A stretch of 64,000 nucleotides of DNA, from the sequence record PP239276.1. One strand, written 5' to 3'. The notes beneath the pieces were generated by a model, which did no database searches, was not told the DNA's origin, and saw nothing but the letters and a program-made list of their open reading frames with translations. Numbering within the stretch: position 1 is the stretch's first letter; each line of letters starts with the position of its first letter. Below are positions 3,306-62,260 of this stretch, one piece after another. The position numbers and the translations under genes were made by a program. This DNA is from Escherichia phage BME3.

Positions 3306-5465
3306 CTATATATAAAATTTTTGTGTTGTTACTAAATCTTCTCCAGATTTAGTGGCTAATGTAATTCCACTTATAGTGGCAATCTCAACATTTACCTGTT
3401 TAAGAGTGATATCTTGCAAGTAGCAATTCAAAGGCACATTACCCATATAAAACACTTGGGATTTTGAATTAAGAACAGTTATTGAATCATGCATTATTTG
3501 TGGGTAAGCCCATATGTATTGATATAAACCAACAAACTTCTGGTCATTCAATACAATATTGCCTATAATCATTTTCCACAAATATGTTCTATAGTTTGAT
3601 TCAGGATCAAAGCCATATAATGGTGCTAGAGTTGCATCTGGAACAAACCCTGCAAGATAATGTATCTTATCGTAACTAAAACCTAGTTGCTCATTAGGTA
3701 TTGTGATAGCGTCGAAAGATTTTTCCATCTTACCTTCCAACAACCAGTCATAACATTCTGAACAATAAAAGTCAAAGTTCTCTGGGATATAATAATCTTT
3801 AGGGAAGTTAACAAACTCCATCATACCATTACCCAAAATGGATGGCACAAATGGTAACAATGTAACTTTAGCTCCAGGATATGCTAATCTGGTATCTGTT
3901 GCAAATTTAGCAACACGCAGTCCTAATGTTTTAGATAGGAATGCATAATATTCATCATATGGTGTACCAGTTTTATAATTTTTAACTGTACCAACATCTT
4001 GTGCATACAATCCAGTTTCATTATTAAATGCAACTTTGGTTGCATAATCATAAATACACGGCAGATTGGTAGCTGTGTTATACCACCACCACGGTTCACC
4101 AACCTGAATAATAACCGGAAGATCATTAGCAGCGGATATAGAAGCTATCTTATTTATTACACCTTGTAAATAATTCATCCCTTCATCAATTGAAGGAGAT
4201 AAAACATAACTTGGTGGCTCATAACCTGTAGCAGCCAGATCATCATTCCAAGTATGTTGTACCCATTCCACAGGACACACTGTACTCATAATTTCAAAAC
4301 TTAAGGAGTTCATTACTGTGTAGCCCATAGCTTTTGCATTAGCGTGGAAATTATCAAACCAGGCTTCTGTTGCTGGGTTTAAATATTCTGTTCTGTTCAA
4401 AGCCCATTTATTAGAACCAGCATCCCAACTAAATTGATAATAGTGTGACATACCATTATAATGGTTAATCATATCCCTATAACCTAATCTATAGGTGTTG
4501 GAAATAACTCGCTCTGGGGTCAGGTTATACATATCATCATAAGATGTGCACATTCTTATGGTGTGTGCTGGAACATTTAAATTACCCATATTCATCATAC
4601 TGTAACCAGTATCAGGCTCTAGTATGGTAAACTTAAAGGAAAGATCCATATTGTCTACAGGTATAACATCTTCAATTTCTTGATACCTTGCGGAGATCAA
4701 GGAGAAGAACATGTTATCTATCTGTGTAGTGTCAACAACAATATCATTTTCTGGCCCAGATTTTAAATTTGAGAAATCTAATTTGATTATTGCTGTTTTA
4801 CCGTCCTCTGAAACTTCTTCTGCATAAAAGTTTAGAGATACATAATGAACTGTTTCATCCTTCAGTGTCACTGTTAAGGATGGCAATAATTTTTCTTCTT
4901 TTAATCCAGGAACACCTTGACTAAGTTCCATTTTAAACCAAAGTTTCTCTTTACTTAAGTCAGAATGTTCTTGGTAGCCTAATCCTTTGTGATCATATTT
5001 ATCGTAAGTTGACCAAATAATCCCAGCAAGACCAGCCACTGTCCTATTAACCATTCTTGCTGTGAAAGAATCACCATTAGAGATAATAGAACAACTTTCT
5101 GTTGCTTGAGAATCTATTGTCCAAAACTTAGGATCAAACATTCTAGACTTCACAACAGGCCAAGTTAGCGGGGTCGTATTCGATTGATTAGTCGTAATAA
5201 CACAACGAATTTCTTCATTGATCATCATGTTATTTTGACTTATGCTAGTAATCTCAAGAGTAAAATAAAGATCTAAAGAGTTTGCCGGACGTTCATATAC
5301 ATCAACCACTACAGTAGCAGAATCTGCATCAGAAGGGAACGTTACTGTTCCCTGTTTAGCTACATAATCTCTACCAGCGACCGCCGTTCCATCGACGGTC
5401 TTATAGCTGAATGAACTGGCATTTACTCTCGTATTTCGAGTTACAGTAAAAATAGCCTGTTTCAT
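3306..5465 (-). CDS. tail fibre / receptor-binding protein (putative)
   Basis: 719-aa ORF in the tail-fibre block, Trp/Tyr/Asn-rich. Confidence 0.4.
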   Translation of the reverse strand: MKQAIFTVTRNTRVNASSFSYKTVDGTAVAGRDYVAKQGTVTFPSDADSATVVVDVYERPANSLDLYFTLEITSISQNNMMINEEIRCVITTNQSNTTPLTWPVVKSRMFDPKFWTIDSQATESCSIISNGDSFTARMVNRTVAGLAGIIWSTYDKYDHKGLGYQEHSDLSKEKLWFKMELSQGVPGLKEEKLLPSLTVTLKDETVHYVSLNFYAEEVSEDGKTAIIKLDFSNLKSGPENDIVVDTTQIDNMFFSLISARYQEIEDVIPVDNMDLSFKFTILEPDTGYSMMNMGNLNVPAHTIRMCTSYDDMYNLTPERVISNTYRLGYRDMINHYNGMSHYYQFSWDAGSNKWALNRTEYLNPATEAWFDNFHANAKAMGYTVMNSLSFEIMSTVCPVEWVQHTWNDDLAATGYEPPSYVLSPSIDEGMNYLQGVINKIASISAANDLPVIIQVGEPWWWYNTATNLPCIYDYATKVAFNNETGLYAQDVGTVKNYKTGTPYDEYYAFLSKTLGLRVAKFATDTRLAYPGAKVTLLPFVPSILGNGMMEFVNFPKDYYIPENFDFYCSECYDWLLEGKMEKSFDAITIPNEQLGFSYDKIHYLAGFVPDATLAPLYGFDPESNYRTYLWKMIIGNIVLNDQKFVGLYQYIWAYPQIMHDSITVLNSKSQVFYMGNVPLNCYLQDITLKQVNVEIATISGITLATKSGEDLVTTQKFYI

Positions 5466-56769: not shown

Positions 56770-57324
56770 ATGATTCAAGCAACAAAAATCGAAGATTTGT
56801 TGATCATTCAACCTGACGTTTACGGAGATGAACGTGGCTTTTTCTTAGAAAGTTTTAATCAGGCTTTATATGATCAATACATAGGTAAACAAAACTTTGT
56901 CCAGGATAACCACTCACGTTCTATTCGAGGAGTTCTACGTGGGCTTCATTTTCAAAAGAAAAACCCACAAGGGAAGTTAGTACGTTGTGTTCGTGGTGAA
57001 GTTTATGATGTTGCTGTAGATATTAGGGTTGGTAGTCCAACATTTGGAGAATGGGTAGGTGTTCTCTTATCTGAAAAGAATAAAACACAATTTTGGATTC
57101 CTCCTGGTTTCGCTCATGGCTTTGTTGTGATTAGCGACATTGCTGATTTTGAATATAAATGTACAGAATATTACGATCCGACTTCAGAGTGTAGTCTTGC
57201 GTGGAATGATCCAGATATCAATATAGATTGGGGTTTTGATTTAATCTTTAATGATATTAATTTTAAACCTATCTTGTCACAAAAAGATCAGCAAGCCAAA
57301 ACACTAAAGGAGATCATATTTTGA
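56770..57324 (+). CDS. rmlC: dTDP-4-dehydrorhamnose 3,5-epimerase
   Basis: 184-aa ORF; RGLHFQ and cupin-like pattern. Confidence 0.75.
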   Translation: MIQATKIEDLLIIQPDVYGDERGFFLESFNQALYDQYIGKQNFVQDNHSRSIRGVLRGLHFQKKNPQGKLVRCVRGEVYDVAVDIRVGSPTFGEWVGVLLSEKNKTQFWIPPGFAHGFVVISDIADFEYKCTEYYDPTSECSLAWNDPDINIDWGFDLIFNDINFKPILSQKDQQAKTLKEIIF

Positions 57325-58151
57325 CAAAATTTTTAATCTTTGGTTCAAAAGGTCAATTAGGACAGTCTTTGGCAAAAGTTGCGCCCGAAGATGTTATTTT
57401 GATTGAAGCAAGTGATGTAGACATTACCAACTTTAAAGATGTTATGAATAGTCTTGTACAGCATGTACCTGATGTTGTTGTGAATTGTGCGGCTTACACG
57501 GCAGTAGATAAAGCTGAAGAAGATGTTAACACCTGTATAAATGTTAATGCATACGGTGCAACAAACATTGCCAAAGCATGTAATGATTTACTGATACAGT
57601 TTGTACATATTTCAACAGACTATGTTTTTGATGGGCATGTCGCTGGCACAGAAGATAGTAAAACAAACCCCTTGAACACCTATGGTTACAGTAAACAATT
57701 AGGTGAAACTTTAGTACAAACAGTTTGTCCTACAGCACTTATTATCAGAACAGCTTCTGTTTATAGTGAGTTTGGACATAACTTTTTGAAAACTATGTTG
57801 GAACGCTACAACGGTGGTCAAAAAGAATTTAATGTAGTATGTGATCATTTATCATGTCCTACTTATGCACCTGATCTGGCAGAAACAATTTTTAAACTTG
57901 TAAAAGATGGTGTAAATAGTAAAATTGTACACTATGCAGGTGCAGATTATATTTCTTGGTATGATTTTGCACGAAAGATATTTCTTGTTATAGATTTATC
58001 TGTTACAGTTAATCCTGTATCTGCTTCAACCTATAATTCTAAAGCAGTCAGACCAGCAACATCTTATTTAAAAACAGATCCTACTTTAAATCCGCGAAGT
58101 GTTGATAGCGGTATTGTAAGAACTTTAACTATACTTTTAAACAAGGAGTGA
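57321..58151 (+). CDS. rmlD: dTDP-4-dehydrorhamnose reductase
   Basis: 276-aa ORF; Rossmann N-terminus MTKFLIFGSKGQLGQSL and ISTDYVFDG. Confidence 0.75.
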   Translation: MTKFLIFGSKGQLGQSLAKVAPEDVILIEASDVDITNFKDVMNSLVQHVPDVVVNCAAYTAVDKAEEDVNTCINVNAYGATNIAKACNDLLIQFVHISTDYVFDGHVAGTEDSKTNPLNTYGYSKQLGETLVQTVCPTALIIRTASVYSEFGHNFLKTMLERYNGGQKEFNVVCDHLSCPTYAPDLAETIFKLVKDGVNSKIVHYAGADYISWYDFARKIFLVIDLSVTVNPVSASTYNSKAVRPATSYLKTDPTLNPRSVDSGIVRTLTILLNKE

Positions 58152-58414
58152 AAATGAATTTTATTATCTACGGTAAACCAAATTGTCCTTTCTGCACTAA
58201 CGCTAAAATTCTGCTAGAACAGCGTGAACAGGATTTTAAATACCTTACCTTAGATGAAGACTATTCTTTAGATCAGATTCAGAATCTGGTTTTAGAGAAA
58301 ACAGGTGTTCTGCCACGTACCTTTCCTCAAATTTTTGTGGAAGATGGTGAACATCTAACCCACGTAGGAGGTTTTTCTGAACTACGTGAATTCATGGCTC
58401 AGATTGCGGAGTAA
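58148..58414 (+). CDS. glutaredoxin / NrdH-like redoxin
   Basis: 88-aa ORF with active site CPFC near the N-terminus. Confidence 0.6.
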   Translation: MKMNFIIYGKPNCPFCTNAKILLEQREQDFKYLTLDEDYSLDQIQNLVLEKTGVLPRTFPQIFVEDGEHLTHVGGFSELREFMAQIAE

Positions 58415-58427
58415 CAATATGAAAGGT

Positions 58428-58563
58428 AAACAGAAACGTAAGATCTTTTCTCGTGCTTTGGCAACAGAGCTTAAGTCCCAAACTAAAAAGACGAAGCCTA
58501 AACGTGAAATGTCTCCTGAACACCTACTGTTTCAAGAGCTAGATCATGGGGAGGGCGACTAAT
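58428..58563 (+). CDS. small basic protein (44 aa), uncertain
   Basis: Short ORF MKGKQKRKIFSRALATELK... directly upstream of the lysozyme gene; below the ORF-track cutoff. Confidence 0.2.
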
Positions 58564-58574
58564 ATAAGGAAAAC

Positions 58575-59075
58575 ATGGCTAAAGTAGTTGATGTGTTTGA
58601 TATGTTACGTTTTGATGAAGGACTAAAGCTAACTGTATATACTGATACCGAAGGGTATTGGACGGTTGGTATTGGACACCTTCTGACAAAACGCAAAGAT
58701 AAAGCAGAAGCTATACGCATTCTTGATAACTTAGTAGGTAGAAAAACCAATGGGGTTATTACTGAAGCGGAAGCTAGAAAAATCTTTGAGAGTGACGTAA
58801 AGAAAGCGATACAACAGATCCATTCAAGCACCATATTATCTCCTATTTACGATAAAGTAAGTCCTAATCGTAAAATGGCTATTATCAATATGGTATTTCA
58901 AATGGGATTGAAAGGTGCAGAATCTTTCAAAAATAGCTTGACTTTAGTGAGTAATTCATATTATACTCAAGCCTCTATAAATTTACGTAAAAGTAAATGG
59001 TATCGCCAAACGCCTAATCGCGCAGAGCGTGTAATTCAGGTACTTAAAACTGGAACATTAGACGCTTATAACTAA
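58575..59075 (+). CDS. endolysin, T4 e-type lysozyme (GH24)
   Basis: 166-aa ORF closely paralleling T4 lysozyme (DEGLKLTVYTDTEGYWTVGIGHLLTK, INMVFQMG, WYRQTPNRAERVI). Confidence 0.9.
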   Translation: MAKVVDVFDMLRFDEGLKLTVYTDTEGYWTVGIGHLLTKRKDKAEAIRILDNLVGRKTNGVITEAEARKIFESDVKKAIQQIHSSTILSPIYDKVSPNRKMAIINMVFQMGLKGAESFKNSLTLVSNSYYTQASINLRKSKWYRQTPNRAERVIQVLKTGTLDAYN

Positions 59076-59079
59076 ACAA

Positions 59080-59100
59080 AGGGGCGAAAGCCCCTTTTAT
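59080..59100 (+). terminator. rho-independent terminator
   Basis: AGGGGC-gaaa-GCCCCT followed by TTTTAT; same hairpin as at 45992. Confidence 0.5.
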
Positions 59101-59113
59101 AAGGAGTGCAAAC

Positions 59114-59866
59114 ATGGGAAATAAAACCGCAAAGGCTCGTCGTCAATCAGCAGCCAATGATGACAAACGTGCCAGTCGTTATGCGGCTAAAGCAGTAGGA
59201 AATGATGATTACCGTCTTGATGAATTTACCCCTGTTGGGAATCAAGAAGCTATTGTAAGAAGCATGGTTTGGAATGATTTAACCATTGTTAATGCCCCAG
59301 CAGGAACAGGAAAAACGACAACAGCACTGTGGAAAGCATTGCAAATGCTTAAAGCTGGTGATTTCAGAAAGTTGATTTTCCTTAAAAACCCGACAGAAGT
59401 AGGTGATGATCAAATTGGTTTCTTATCTGGAGATAAGACTGATAAACTGGCAGCACACTACGAATCAACTAAAAGAATTTTCCAACAGTTTATGACTGCA
59501 AATAAATTGGAAAACGATATTGCAAGTGGCAAAATTGAACTTAATATTCCAAACTATGCACTAGGTGCTACCTGGGATAACAGTATTATTCTTATTGATG
59601 AAGTTCAACTTATGTCACCAAATACAGTAAAACTTCTTCTTGAGCGAGCAGGTCTTAATACACGTATTGTCATTATGGGTGATGTTAATCAAACATATGC
59701 AATTAAACGAAGAGCTAACGGGTTAGGTGATTTGTTAGATCGTGTTGTTCCTATTAATGAAGAAGGAGAAAGGGAAGCTATTGTAGATTTTATTGGTTAT
59801 GTTGAAATGACAACTGCTGATAACCAACGTTCCCGTTTGTCTCAGTTCATCACGGAAGTATACTAA
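59114..59866 (+). CDS. phoH: PhoH-like ATPase
   Basis: 250-aa ORF with Walker A NAPAGTGKTT and LIDEVQ Walker B. Confidence 0.75.
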   Translation: MGNKTAKARRQSAANDDKRASRYAAKAVGNDDYRLDEFTPVGNQEAIVRSMVWNDLTIVNAPAGTGKTTTALWKALQMLKAGDFRKLIFLKNPTEVGDDQIGFLSGDKTDKLAAHYESTKRIFQQFMTANKLENDIASGKIELNIPNYALGATWDNSIILIDEVQLMSPNTVKLLLERAGLNTRIVIMGDVNQTYAIKRRANGLGDLLDRVVPINEEGEREAIVDFIGYVEMTTADNQRSRLSQFITEVY

Positions 59867-59902
59867 TAATTACAAGGCAAGGATGCCTGTTATGGAGGTT
59901 AA

Positions 59903-60397
59903 ATGACGCTAATTGAGATTGATCGCAATGGTATTGATGAATGCTATCAAGCTGGCTTAGTTAAGCCGAATGAGTTTAGACAGATTTATATTGACAAGAT
60001 TGAAAAAGAAATATCTCTTCGTTTAGAGAACATGACAACTTTGCAAAAAGTTCAGATGTTTTTTAGTTGGTTAAAAGGCGAGGATTGGCTAACTAAATAT
60101 TACCAGGAATTATCTGATAGTCAAGAAGGCTTGTTTGAGTGTATAATAAATATAGCTGGGTCTAATTCAGAATTACTCCTGATTGATGAAGAAGATTCTA
60201 AACTTCTTTTTCTTAGCAGTATCTTTCACAAGAAATCTATGTTAGTAAGAAATTGCAGTGATTTACTAAATCATCCACTAACAAGAACTAATAAAATTCT
60301 TGTGGATAAAGAAACACTAAGAGCTATTGATTACCTCCGTAAATATGTAAGCGGTGGTAAAGCAGTCCTTAAAACACTACAGGAGGAAGTACAATGA
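59903..60397 (+). CDS. hypothetical protein
   Basis: 164-aa ORF, ATGA overlap with the next gene. Confidence 0.35.
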   Translation: MTLIEIDRNGIDECYQAGLVKPNEFRQIYIDKIEKEISLRLENMTTLQKVQMFFSWLKGEDWLTKYYQELSDSQEGLFECIINIAGSNSELLLIDEEDSKLLFLSSIFHKKSMLVRNCSDLLNHPLTRTNKILVDKETLRAIDYLRKYVSGGKAVLKTLQEEVQ

Positions 60398-61047
60398 CAA
60401 CAATTATTGCAACACGTAACAAAATTCTGTCTGACGGTAAAGTAACAGTAGGTAGTCGTGTAGACACTTTAAATTTCAAGAAAGTGCGTAAAATTGGGGA
60501 TTACCTTGTTGGTGGTGCAGGACGTCTGTCTTCTATCCTGACTTTCTTTTCTTGGTTCGAACAAAACTTACAATGCCAAGCAGCACAAGAGACAATCCCA
60601 GGTTTGGTGATCCAGTCAGATCCTGACAAAGAAGATGAAGAGTTTGTGGCATTGGTTGTTCACCCAGACGGTAAAATTTATATGCACGAGGGTAATAATC
60701 CCACGCGAGCATATCCTTTAACTGAAGATTATTATGCTGTTGGTAGTGGGGCAGATTTTGCTTTAGCAGCTTTAGACGCTGGGGCATCCCCAGAAGAAGC
60801 GATGGAAGTTGCAAAACTGCGAGATGCTTTTTCAGGCGGTGAAACTTTTATCGAAGAGATCGAAGAACAACTGGAGTTAACAGCGGAAGATATTCTGAAC
60901 TTTAGCAAGGAGCAACTAATTAGTATGCTGTTGACTGGTGATCCTGATAGTGATGAAGCTGAAAGTATTTTAGCAGAAATGAAAGAATCACAAGAAAAAG
61001 TATTGACAGTCTCTGAAAAACTTGATAAAGTGTCCTCTGATAATTAA
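60394..61047 (+). CDS. HslV-like Ntn-hydrolase peptidase (proteasome beta-type)
   Basis: 217-aa ORF; MTTIIATRN...DGKVTVG...KKVRKIGDYLVGGAG and AVGSGADFALAALDAG parallel HslV (TTIVSVRR..., KKVRRL, AIGSGG); Thr2 would be the N-terminal nucleophile. Confidence 0.55.
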   Translation: MTTIIATRNKILSDGKVTVGSRVDTLNFKKVRKIGDYLVGGAGRLSSILTFFSWFEQNLQCQAAQETIPGLVIQSDPDKEDEEFVALVVHPDGKIYMHEGNNPTRAYPLTEDYYAVGSGADFALAALDAGASPEEAMEVAKLRDAFSGGETFIEEIEEQLELTAEDILNFSKEQLISMLLTGDPDSDEAESILAEMKESQEKVLTVSEKLDKVSSDN

Positions 61048-61056
61048 TCTAGTATA

Positions 61057-61078
61057 AACCCCCAGCAAGGGGGTTATT
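61057..61078 (+). terminator. terminator-like hairpin
   Basis: AACCCCC-agcaa-GGGGGTT followed by ATTAGG; U-tract weak. Confidence 0.3.
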
Positions 61079-61088
61079 AGGAGGAGAT

Positions 61089-61517
61089 ATGTTACCAGTA
61101 CCTGTAACCTTTGTAGAAAAAGCCTACTACTCTTTAGAACAAAACTGTAAAAGAGCTAAAAATTTTATTGAAAGTTTAGCAGAACAGCGTTACACTGTAT
61201 CTAAAAAGGGATGGTTCAGAACTTCACAATATTCAGTCAACCCTTTCGGAGAAGTTCGTGTGCTGTATGGCAACACAGAAAATATCTTAGAAAGAATGTT
61301 AGAACTAGATAGGATCTCCTCCTGTGATTATCAACTGTTGAAATTTTACGATTTGTCAGAAAACTTTAAAAACTTTCTTGACGATTTATGTAAACGAAAA
61401 ACAGAAGAAGATACAATACCAGTATCTATGGAAGAATTAACGTTCTTAAGAGATATTATGGTTTTTGAAGAAGACCCTGAAATCACAAAAGAGGAGATTT
61501 TAAGTAGTGGCAAATAA
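61089..61517 (+). CDS. hypothetical protein
   Basis: 142-aa ORF with GGAGGAG RBS. Confidence 0.4.
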   Translation: MLPVPVTFVEKAYYSLEQNCKRAKNFIESLAEQRYTVSKKGWFRTSQYSVNPFGEVRVLYGNTENILERMLELDRISSCDYQLLKFYDLSENFKNFLDDLCKRKTEEDTIPVSMEELTFLRDIMVFEEDPEITKEEILSSGK

Positions 61518-62016
61518 GTATGATCGTCCACCAACTGATTACTATCCTACTCCACAAAAATGTATAAATGCATTATTTAGTGTAATAGATTTTAATAACC
61601 TTAAAGAAGAAGGTTTTATTTTTGCAGAACCGTGTAAAGGCGCTGCTGCTGCAATTTATCAACATTTTCCAGAAGGATCAGAATATTGTGAGTTAGAAGA
61701 AGGGAAAGATTATTTTAACCATGAATGGCATACTAAGCCGGATATTATAATCACAAATCCCCCATTCAAACTTGCACTTGAGTTCTTGCAAAAGAGCTTA
61801 AAAGAAGCAGACGTTTGCATATACTTGTTGCGTCTTGGGTTCCTAGAGTCTATTAAACGAAGGGAATTCCATAAACAGAATCCACCAACAAATTTGATTG
61901 TTCTTTCTGAACGCCCATCTTTTGTTGCAGGTGGTACTGATAAGACAGCATATGCTTGGTACGTCTACGACCCAAAAAACAGGCTGGGTTTAACTCAACC
62001 TTTCTATTTTGTTTAA
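61507..62016 (+). CDS. DNA methyltransferase (amino-MTase, NPPF motif; orphan)
   Basis: 169-aa ORF; FAEPCKGAAAA (SAM-binding motif I-like) followed by IIITNPPFKL (motif IV), the gamma-class order as in M.TaqI. Confidence 0.5.
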   Translation: MANKYDRPPTDYYPTPQKCINALFSVIDFNNLKEEGFIFAEPCKGAAAAIYQHFPEGSEYCELEEGKDYFNHEWHTKPDIIITNPPFKLALEFLQKSLKEADVCIYLLRLGFLESIKRREFHKQNPPTNLIVLSERPSFVAGGTDKTAYAWYVYDPKNRLGLTQPFYFV

Positions 62017-62029
62017 GAGGAGCATTTTT

Positions 62030-62260
62030 ATGACCGAGAAATTTATTGTTACTATGGAACTCACCTTTGATGAAGAAGATTTTGATCTTCATGTATCAAC
62101 TAAAGCAGATAACATTCACACAACACAGAGTGTTGCAATCGCTATGTTCTTTAAACAAGCAATTGCAAAACAAGCTGAAGTATGTGCTGGTTTAGCTGTA
62201 GAGTATGCAGAAGTTGTCAAGGTTCTTGAAAGTGCTCGTAACGGCGATTGGGATGAATAA
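62030..62260 (+). CDS. hypothetical protein
   Basis: Internal ATG after AGAGGAG RBS. Confidence 0.3.
   Translation: MTEKFIVTMELTFDEEDFDLHVSTKADNIHTTQSVAIAMFFKQAIAKQAEVCAGLAVEYAEVVKVLESARNGDWDE

Follow-up and report, generated by a model that had tools for sequence, protein, structure and literature searches.

Here we describe a proteasome-like peptidase gene of Escherichia phage BME3 (sequence record PP239276.1), located in a stretch of 64,000 nucleotides to which we refer as the window. The gene lies at 60394-61047 on the plus strand and encodes 217 amino acids followed by a stop codon, with the start MTTIIATRN that an earlier note on this DNA, made from the sequence alone, had reported. 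Its product is a homologue of Phi92_gp058 of Escherichia phage phi92 and will be called gp058. The gene directly upstream (59903-60397, plus strand, 164 amino acids) is the homologue of Phi92_gp059. We are close to certain that gp058 is a proteasome-like N-terminal nucleophile (Ntn) hydrolase of a known phage family, with its active site intact. It is not an orthologue of HslV, and the name 'HslV' overstates the relationship. We give about even chances to the view that gp058 is an accessory, non-structural peptidase of the proteasome family and of a compact phage type, composed of a core like that of the phage proteasome homologues (PPH) and a C-terminal extension. Slightly lower chances are given to a mechanism that would be independent of an ATPase and assisted by gp059.

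Fold and active site of gp058

The family assignment is supported by profile and sequence searches. Over residues 1-212, gp058 matches PHROG 1040, 'peptidase HslV family', with 209 bits (E=1.9e-61). The search with a proteasome hidden Markov model that the earlier note had proposed gave 24.8 bits for Pfam Proteasome PF00227, which just exceeds the gathering cut-off (22.4), with an alignment that covers only residues 11-63; a homologue of gp058 from a Vibrio phage aligns to this family over its full length (E=8.7e-10). When gp058 is searched against the PDB with phmmer the top matches are all HslV, among them the Thermotoga maritima protein 1m4y (E=6.5e-8) and E. coli HslV (about 1e-5). The identity to E. 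coli HslV is about 27% across 127 residues, and the aligned pairs, with gp058 given first, include MTTI/MTTI, FKKVRKI/VKKVRRL, GGAG/GFAG and AVGSGA/AIGSGG. An exhaustive profile search starting from gp058 yielded 8,289 clusters when E-values up to 1e-3 were admitted, of which 2,105 remained at E<=1e-10 and 57 at E<=1e-30.

The positions expected of a threonine hydrolase are strictly kept. In an alignment of 24 homologues, the most divergent of which is 32% identical, T2, T3, D14, K30, G41, G43 and G117-S118-G119 are invariant, and the catalytic residues are likewise kept in an alignment of 59 sequences of the closest gp058 clade. The predicted nucleophile is Thr2 (codon 60397-60399; like all features of the gene on the plus strand), which would become Thr1 after the removal of Met1. 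It is present in 24 of 24 family members and in all 55 sequences of the close clade that have a residue at this column. An MTT start is found in 126 of the 146 top library matches, E. coli HslV begins in the same way, and gp058 has no propeptide. Asp14 (60433-60435) is aligned to the GDG of HslV and corresponds to Asp17 of HslV and the proteasome. Lys30 (60481-60483), within FKKVRKI, is aligned to VKKVRRL of HslV and corresponds to the catalytic Lys33. The segment G40-G41-A42-G43 (60511-60522), aligned to AGFAGG of HslV, would provide the oxyanion-hole glycine; among the 24 sequences G41 and G43 do not vary, and G40 hardly does. The GSG loop is formed by G117-S118-G119 (60742-60750), where both glycines are invariant in the two alignments and the serine, invariant in the smaller one, is Ser in 57 and Thr in 2 of the 59 close-clade sequences. 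The HslV-like threonine context, the KKVR lysine region and the GSG loop, which the earlier note had pointed out, are thus borne out by alignment with HslV, and Thr2, Lys30 and the GSG residues within them are invariant in the 24 members.

The predicted structure leads to the same assignment. The AlphaFold2 model of gp058 (pLDDT 82.3) has the alpha-beta-beta-alpha Ntn fold of the proteasome type, and a Foldseek search of the PDB with this model returned 961 matches at E<=0.001. The best 50 of these are all HslV/ClpQ, 20S subunits (archaeal and eukaryotic beta) or BPH, with a probability of 1.00, and E-values for ClpQ/HslV, 20S beta and BPH are about 1e-9 to 1e-10. Both the Ntn fold and the catalytic triad, on which the earlier note had made its proposal depend, are present.

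Departures from HslV

The earlier note called the protein HslV-like, which is correct in the sense of a threonine hydrolase of the proteasome/HslV type but not in the sense of an HslV orthologue. Against the NCBIfam equivalog models for HslV, gp058 scores only 33.9 bits (NF003964, cut-off 137) and 31.3 bits (TIGR03692, cut-off 157.75). In its model, as assigned by DSSP, a single helix at residues 45-67 is followed by 16 residues of acidic coil, up to residue 83, where HslV has helix H2. Because gp058 falls so far below the equivalog cut-offs and H2 is absent, we do not regard it as an HslV orthologue. According to the model and the alignment, the place of H2 is taken by an acidic coil (residues 68-84, IPGLVIQSDPDKEDEEF; 60595-60645), in which D81, E82 and F84 are conserved in the 24- and 59-sequence alignments.

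For a comparison of architectures we aligned gp058 with E. coli HslV and with matches from the profile search. H2 is also deleted in relatives of about 140 amino acids, and it is kept in HslV and in relatives of about 177 amino acids. Over the whole of its core gp058 can be aligned with a large set of phage proteins of 138-155 amino acids. It has in common with them the loss of H2, a first hairpin that is 4 residues shorter, a shorter linker between H3 and H4 and an 'SGG' motif, and all the deletions that these proteins show against HslV are present in gp058. When one relative of about 140 amino acids was used as a tblastn query, at least 596 phage records were found, many of them siphoviruses of about 42 kb, including those of Salmonella, and also Vibrio, Rhizobium, Caulobacter and Erwinia phages, and the same query also reaches phAPEC8 and phi92-type genes at 32-34% identity. 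Proteins of this size (about 140 amino acids) were described as PPH by Fuchs, Alva & Lupas 2021 (PMC8665760), who described PPH and RPC as lacking helix H2 and who detected no co-occurring AAA+ interactor for any of the new homologues. Judged by its architecture, gp058 would be a PPH rather than an RPC.

Another difference from HslV, and one from the relatives of about 140 amino acids too, in neither of which it is present in the alignment, is the C-terminal extension of gp058 (residues 158-217; 60865-61044). It contains 16 acidic (D/E) and 5 basic (K/R) residues and is predicted to be helical, with AlphaFold2 helices at residues 164-169, 172-181 and 188-215, while the pLDDT drops from 79 to 52. 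After an acidic linker follows the motif L-T-x-E-x5-[ST]-K-E-[EQ]-L-[LI]-x2-[LI]-[FL]-G (residues 162-182; 60877-60939), which is shared by almost all of the 57 nearest clusters made at 50% identity. Past the motif the tails are no longer alike, and those of some relatives expand into extra Cys-rich domains. In the alignment (A1, columns 250-410), relatives P0061, P0062, P0065, P0069 and P0071 have much longer C-terminal tails. Those of P0061 and P0069 contain a Cys/His-rich segment, C-x-H ... C-x2-C, which resembles a zinc ribbon, and most of the long tails end in W-[RK]-L. Such sequences suggest that the long tails of these relatives may be modular C-terminal recruitment domains. In this family of proteasome homologues the C-termini are turned outwards from the presumed ring and may serve in interactions (PMC8665760).

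A profile of 45 C-terminal segments gave no Pfam match and no PDB match beyond chance, and our reading of the motif as HeH/SAP/Rho-N-like was dropped as no such Pfam family was found with this profile. The PDB match of the motif profile to E. coli RpoB (residues 213-227) is short, has a domain score of 11.4 bits and is probably fortuitous.

Partners and possible modes of action

The stop codon of gp059 and the start codon of gp058 overlap in an ATGA (60394-60397, plus strand), and a ribosome binding site for gp058, AGGAGG (60381-60386, plus strand), lies within the 3' end of gp059, as read from the sequence and from the annotation of phi92. The earlier note stated that the upstream product of 164 amino acids is not HslU. 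This holds, as gp059 is an all-alpha protein without a P-loop, and it has no structural match. Even so, gp059 is not irrelevant to the peptidase. It is found in 133 phage records, which equals the number of records with peptidases at least 60% identical to gp058. Its homologues in metagenomic contigs are only 27-38% identical, and they are still located directly upstream of the peptidase while other neighbours change. These sequence data identify gp059 as a co-conserved and, by its overlap, translationally coupled companion of gp058, and so as a candidate partner of the peptidase.

The two genes are part of a longer block. On one strand, the order is ribonucleotide reductase (RNR), glutaredoxin, dTDP-sugar enzymes, lysozyme, PhoH, gp059, gp058, gp057, methyltransferase and resolvase. 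The order RNR, glutaredoxin, lysozyme, PhoH, a gp059-like gene, peptidase and resolvase recurs in Phapecoctavirus, the same order from RNR to resolvase is found in three metagenomic myovirus contigs with peptidases that are 43-53% identical, and Vibrio and Shewanella phages have it without gp059. The conserved block (about 57300-59900 of the window; loci L002 and L004-L008) ends in a serine resolvase/invertase and links the Stephanstirmvirinae with Vibrio/Shewanella myoviruses and uncultured relatives. The PhoH-like protein two genes upstream of gp058 (59114-59866, plus strand; PF02562 E=1.4e-35) is a P-loop ATPase which does not belong to the AAA+ class. We considered it as a functional partner and rejected it: PhoH is not an AAA+ unfoldase, and because synteny extends over the entire block, RNR to resolvase, the order of PhoH and peptidase alone shows no functional link. 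An assignment to defence or anti-defence was also rejected, since PADLOC gave no matches for gp058, gp059 and gp057.

In Aeromonas phage 4L372D (L003), the slot that gp059 occupies in the enterobacterial phages is taken by a second, very divergent proteasome-like open reading frame (3432-3983, 183 amino acids), directly upstream of the gp058 homologue (4001-4885). It starts (M)TCIIALRD, its catalytic positions are occupied by GD, K and GCG, and it aligns with Pfam Proteasome over its full length (E=0.013). This phage may carry a tandem pair of proteasome homologues.

No gene for HslU was found. A tblastn search with E. coli HslU gave nothing in the window (best E=1.9) and nothing at E<=1 in loci that jointly cover positions 576-148,612 of phi92, and neither gene flanking gp058 encodes an ATPase. 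HslU-like genes do exist in other phages, chiefly Erwinia jumbo phages. The earlier note was therefore right that there is no HslU nearby, and its description of the peptidase as an orphan stands to this extent. The lack of a partner is, however, not peculiar to this locus, since it is the published norm for the family (PMC8665760), and HslV genes without HslU have also been remarked on in phage genome papers (PMC7823757). A further qualification is needed. No ATPase at the locus is an HslU, but phi92 encodes two AAA ATPases of family PF00004 at a great distance, to which we return below.

For the non-structural role of gp058 we note that its gene lies within the nucleotide-metabolism block, on the strand opposite to the head module, and that gp58 is not mentioned in a recent cryo-EM paper on the phi92 virion. 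The deposited genome of phage VEcB (MT932211.1; L013 1465-2268) has a clean deletion of 1,121 bp, which corresponds to 59458-60578 of the window and is located at a 9-bp microhomology (AGCAGCACA). The deletion joins the first 115 or so codons of PhoH in frame to peptidase residue 63. Lost with it are the C-terminus of PhoH, the entire gp059 gene and the first 62 residues of the peptidase, including Thr1, Asp17, Lys33 and the glycine of the active site. If this deletion is not an artefact, it follows that the trio of PhoH, gp059 and gp058 is dispensable for propagation; in our proposal, plaques can form without the gp059-gp058 pair.

In the mechanism that we tentatively put forward, host methionine aminopeptidase would strip Met1 and expose Thr1, as with E. 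coli HslV. The subunits of gp058 would assemble into a single or double ring with the active sites inside, and the acidic loop replacing H2 would line the ring entrance. A parallel to this loop is the long acidic pore loop of the partnerless BPH (PMC8665760). In the infected cell gp058 would cut peptides, unfolded proteins or specifically recruited proteins without a dedicated unfoldase, a mode of action that has been proposed for BPH and other partnerless homologues. The outward-facing acidic extension with its motif, together with the co-translated gp059, might serve as regulator, adaptor or assembly factor.

Several points weigh against this proposal. The assembly of gp058 into a ring and its independence of ATP are suggested by analogy. 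HslV by itself is a very poor peptidase, so that gp058 may yet depend on an activator. The relatives of gp058 from Vibrio, Shewanella and Aeromonas phages have no gp059 beside them, which means that gp059 is no universal partner, and an adjacency that is kept inside a broadly syntenic block is weak evidence of interaction. With respect to the deletion, another VEcB-named record (OZ035773) has a full-length peptidase gene, and the deletion may have arisen in the assembly of the genome or by selection in the laboratory.

Among the other explanations the use of the host unfoldase comes first; the earlier note had proposed it, along with a possible part in host takeover. Here gp058 would dock on the host HslU hexamer and give an alternative ATP-dependent protease of the HslUV type, redirecting the host unfoldase. 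Proteobacteria have hslVU as a rule, the phage itself lacks HslU, and the closest solved relatives of gp058 by sequence are HslV. The gp058 family and the relatives of about 140 amino acids are found in phages of Proteobacteria (PMC8665760 Table 1). Several points argue against it, though. The identity of gp058 to E. coli HslV is only about 27%, its scores are far under the equivalog cut-offs, and its Thr25 is aligned, in a variable column, with HslV Lys28, which we presume binds the C-terminal carboxylate of HslU. The apical face of the ring carries H1 and H2, and H3 and H4 provide the contacts between rings (PMC8665760); with H2 missing from the apical face, the surface that meets HslU in HslV is remodelled in gp058. 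HslV is a dodecamer of two hexameric rings that the C-terminal tails of HslU activate. The groove for the HslU tail is built by a beta-hairpin of HslV (PMC7468587), the sequence of which is not conserved in gp058. Use of host HslU is therefore disfavoured, and we consider it unlikely.

Slightly less probable still is a more specific form of the unfoldase-independent idea, in which gp059 and gp058 would make up a two-component phage protease of a kind not recognised before. The gp058 motif, LTxE...SKEELLxxLFG, loosely resembles the tail of HslU, ...EDLSRFIL. The C-terminal helix might thus activate the ring in cis, by folding into the groove between subunits and switching the ring on in place of HslU. 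As a second option, the helix and gp059 could recruit a specific host target, for example a defence or stress protein.

Alternatively, gp058 might be an Ntn enzyme, a hydrolase or a transferase, whose reaction is not degradative or whose substrate is not a protein. It could be a site-specific enzyme for processing or ligation, as connectase is, or an amidase with a small molecule or a modification of proteins as its target. The proteasome-like family does include connectase, a monomeric ligase, and its predicted quaternary structures are diverse (PMC8665760). The lack of an unfoldase partner would fit such a role, as would the variable C-terminal domains of the relatives, which suggest specific recruitment. 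On the other hand, the core of gp058 is closest to the ring-forming group I proteins HslV and BPH, and gp058 lacks the insertion between S3 and S4 over the active site that is the defining feature of connectase. We would accord this explanation little probability.

The two AAA ATPases of phi92 mentioned above, gp190 (record 117149-118309; L011:1750-2910, minus strand) and gp221 (133606-134733; L011:18207-19334, plus strand), lie outside the window, and one or both could be the unfoldase for gp058. With 27.2 and 38.9 bits they are above the PF00004 gathering cut-off of 21.2, Walker A (GTKGSGKT) and Walker B (DEFD) sequences are present in them, and classical AAA proteins pair with proteasomes in other systems. 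The two are paralogues with 47% identity in the N-terminal 250 residues, while their C-terminal halves, rich in beta structure, are unrelated. Their genes are, however, about 95-112 kb from that of the peptidase, their C-termini (...GARSY and ...LASVF) are neither HbYX-like nor HslU-like, and on reading the sequences we saw no obvious aromatic-hydrophobic-Gly pore loop. Their distribution is also different. Homologues of gp190 and gp221 occur in 302-379 phage records, mostly Enterococcus, Bacillus, Staphylococcus, Lactococcus, crAss-like and jumbo phages, with no Vibrio or Shewanella record among the listed results, whereas every phage with a homologue of the peptidase is assigned to a Gram-negative host, Vibrio and Shewanella phages included. 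We rejected gp190 and gp221 as partners on the ground of this mismatch in distribution; from these sequence comparisons a dedicated partnership with gp058 is unlikely, and we rate it as very improbable. The gp190/gp221 family itself spans very different phages, those like Herelleviridae among them.

Equally poor are the prospects of gp058 as a decoy or poison subunit, which would disturb host HslVU by co-assembling with HslV or titrating HslU and would not be an enzyme in its own right. It is HslV-like, it is encoded among non-structural metabolic genes, and it appears dispensable in VEcB. But all catalytic residues are strictly conserved over a deep divergence, which speaks against a pure decoy, as this would not need them, and the interface regions have diverged here as they have for docking on host HslU.

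Finally, we looked at capsid maturation, as RefSeq annotates no prohead protease in the head module of phi92. An open reading frame between the portal and scaffold genes of the window (22391-22882, minus strand) matches Peptidase_S78_2 (XkdF-type) with 44.1 bits (cut-off 24) and also PHROG 'head maturation protease' families; it is identical to phi92 gp121 (L012:16593-17072). The phage therefore has its own head-maturation protease. RefSeq calls gp121 'DNA methyltransferase', following the label of PHROG 1530, which is likely a mis-annotation. With this S78 protease in the head module, gp058 in the nucleotide-metabolism block on the opposite strand and VEcB viable without the catalytic N-terminus, a role of gp058 as the prohead protease was rejected and has next to no probability.

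Surrounding sequence and known systems

The window has 99% identity to phi92, its region at 59000-62100 is 99.1-99.3% identical to phi92 and its Justusliebigvirus relatives, and the gp058 gene has 99.1% DNA identity to its phi92 counterpart. Homologues of gp058 are found in 166 phage records, and the gene is annotated in phi92 and about 165 others. RefSeq labels Phi92_gp058 as 'peptidase HslV family; putative 20S proteasome' and gp059 as hypothetical, and the names given to identical or near-identical proteins are 'peptidase HslV family', 'putative 20S proteasome' and 'putative nucleophile aminohydrolase'. Four 'Campylobacter phage' records, MG065645, MG065639, MG065656 and MG065650 (A145, A150, C3 and B15), match phi92-/phAPEC8-type E. 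coli phages at 99% identity, or 71% in the case of B15. Their host labels are probably wrong, or the sequences contaminants.

Just 3' of the gp058 stop codon, a pattern scan found a GC-rich hairpin, CCCCC-agcaa-GGGGG (61059-61072; no strand assigned), with a predicted RNA fold of -15.2 kcal/mol (z=-2.0). Judged from its sequence it may act in termination or in stabilising the RNA, for which the evidence is weak. Short GC-rich hairpins are found at 59078-59097, 59875-59888 and 61059-61072, in the gaps between lysozyme and PhoH, PhoH and gp059, and gp058 and gp057. These intergenic hairpins bracket the gp059-gp058 pair, and the scan registers them on the minus strand. The counts of the promoter and terminator scans, hairpins included, were not above those for shuffled sequence.

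The gene was already annotated, and the family and its lack of an ATPase partner were already published. What is new are details, namely the companion gene gp059, the C-terminal motif, the AAA paralogues and the VEcB deletion, and these are leads for experiments and not discoveries. Phage-borne proteasome homologues are widespread, with 166 records in the gp058 clade, at least 596 for the relatives of about 140 amino acids and 2,105 clusters at E<=1e-10. The phi92-/phAPEC8-type phages infect E. coli K-12 and are readily manipulated, which makes them a handy system for studying the action of a proteasome-like ring that has no unfoldase and its benefit to the phage. We see the value of gp058 not in a new kind of element but in a defined test case, with gp059 as a candidate partner, a conserved motif and a natural deletion mutant in VEcB.

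Among known systems, gp058 belongs to PHROG 1040, and it is only the name of this family that is imprecise, as it implies an HslV orthology which our tests do not support. With HslV (ClpQ) it shares the fold, the MTT start, a Thr1 exposed by removal of the methionine, Asp17, Lys33 in KKVR, the oxyanion glycine and the GSG loop. It differs from HslV in the absence of H2, in the shortened first hairpin and H3/H4 linker, in the extra C-terminal extension, and in having no hslU gene adjacent to it or elsewhere in phi92. BPH (PDB 5ovs/5ovt) is, like gp058, a partnerless group I proteasome homologue. It is matched by Foldseek with probability 1.00, and the acidic segment after H1 of gp058 is at the position of the BPH 'pore loop' (PMC8665760). 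But the TM-score of the gp058 model is 0.52 for BPH against 0.64-0.69 for HslV, and BPH is a cellular protein which keeps H2 and lacks such a C-terminal extension. The presence of a C-terminal extension (residues 158-217) is a likeness to RPC, which have been reported from bacteria, whereas gp058 comes from a phage. Compared with PPH, gp058 has a core of 157 residues instead of about 140, owing to the acidic loop at residues 68-84, and it adds the 60-residue extension with its own conserved motif. With PPH and RPC alike it shares a compact group I core without a propeptide and without H2, and like the PPH, which are found in Caudovirales, it is carried by tailed phages of Proteobacteria with no co-occurring AAA+ partner.

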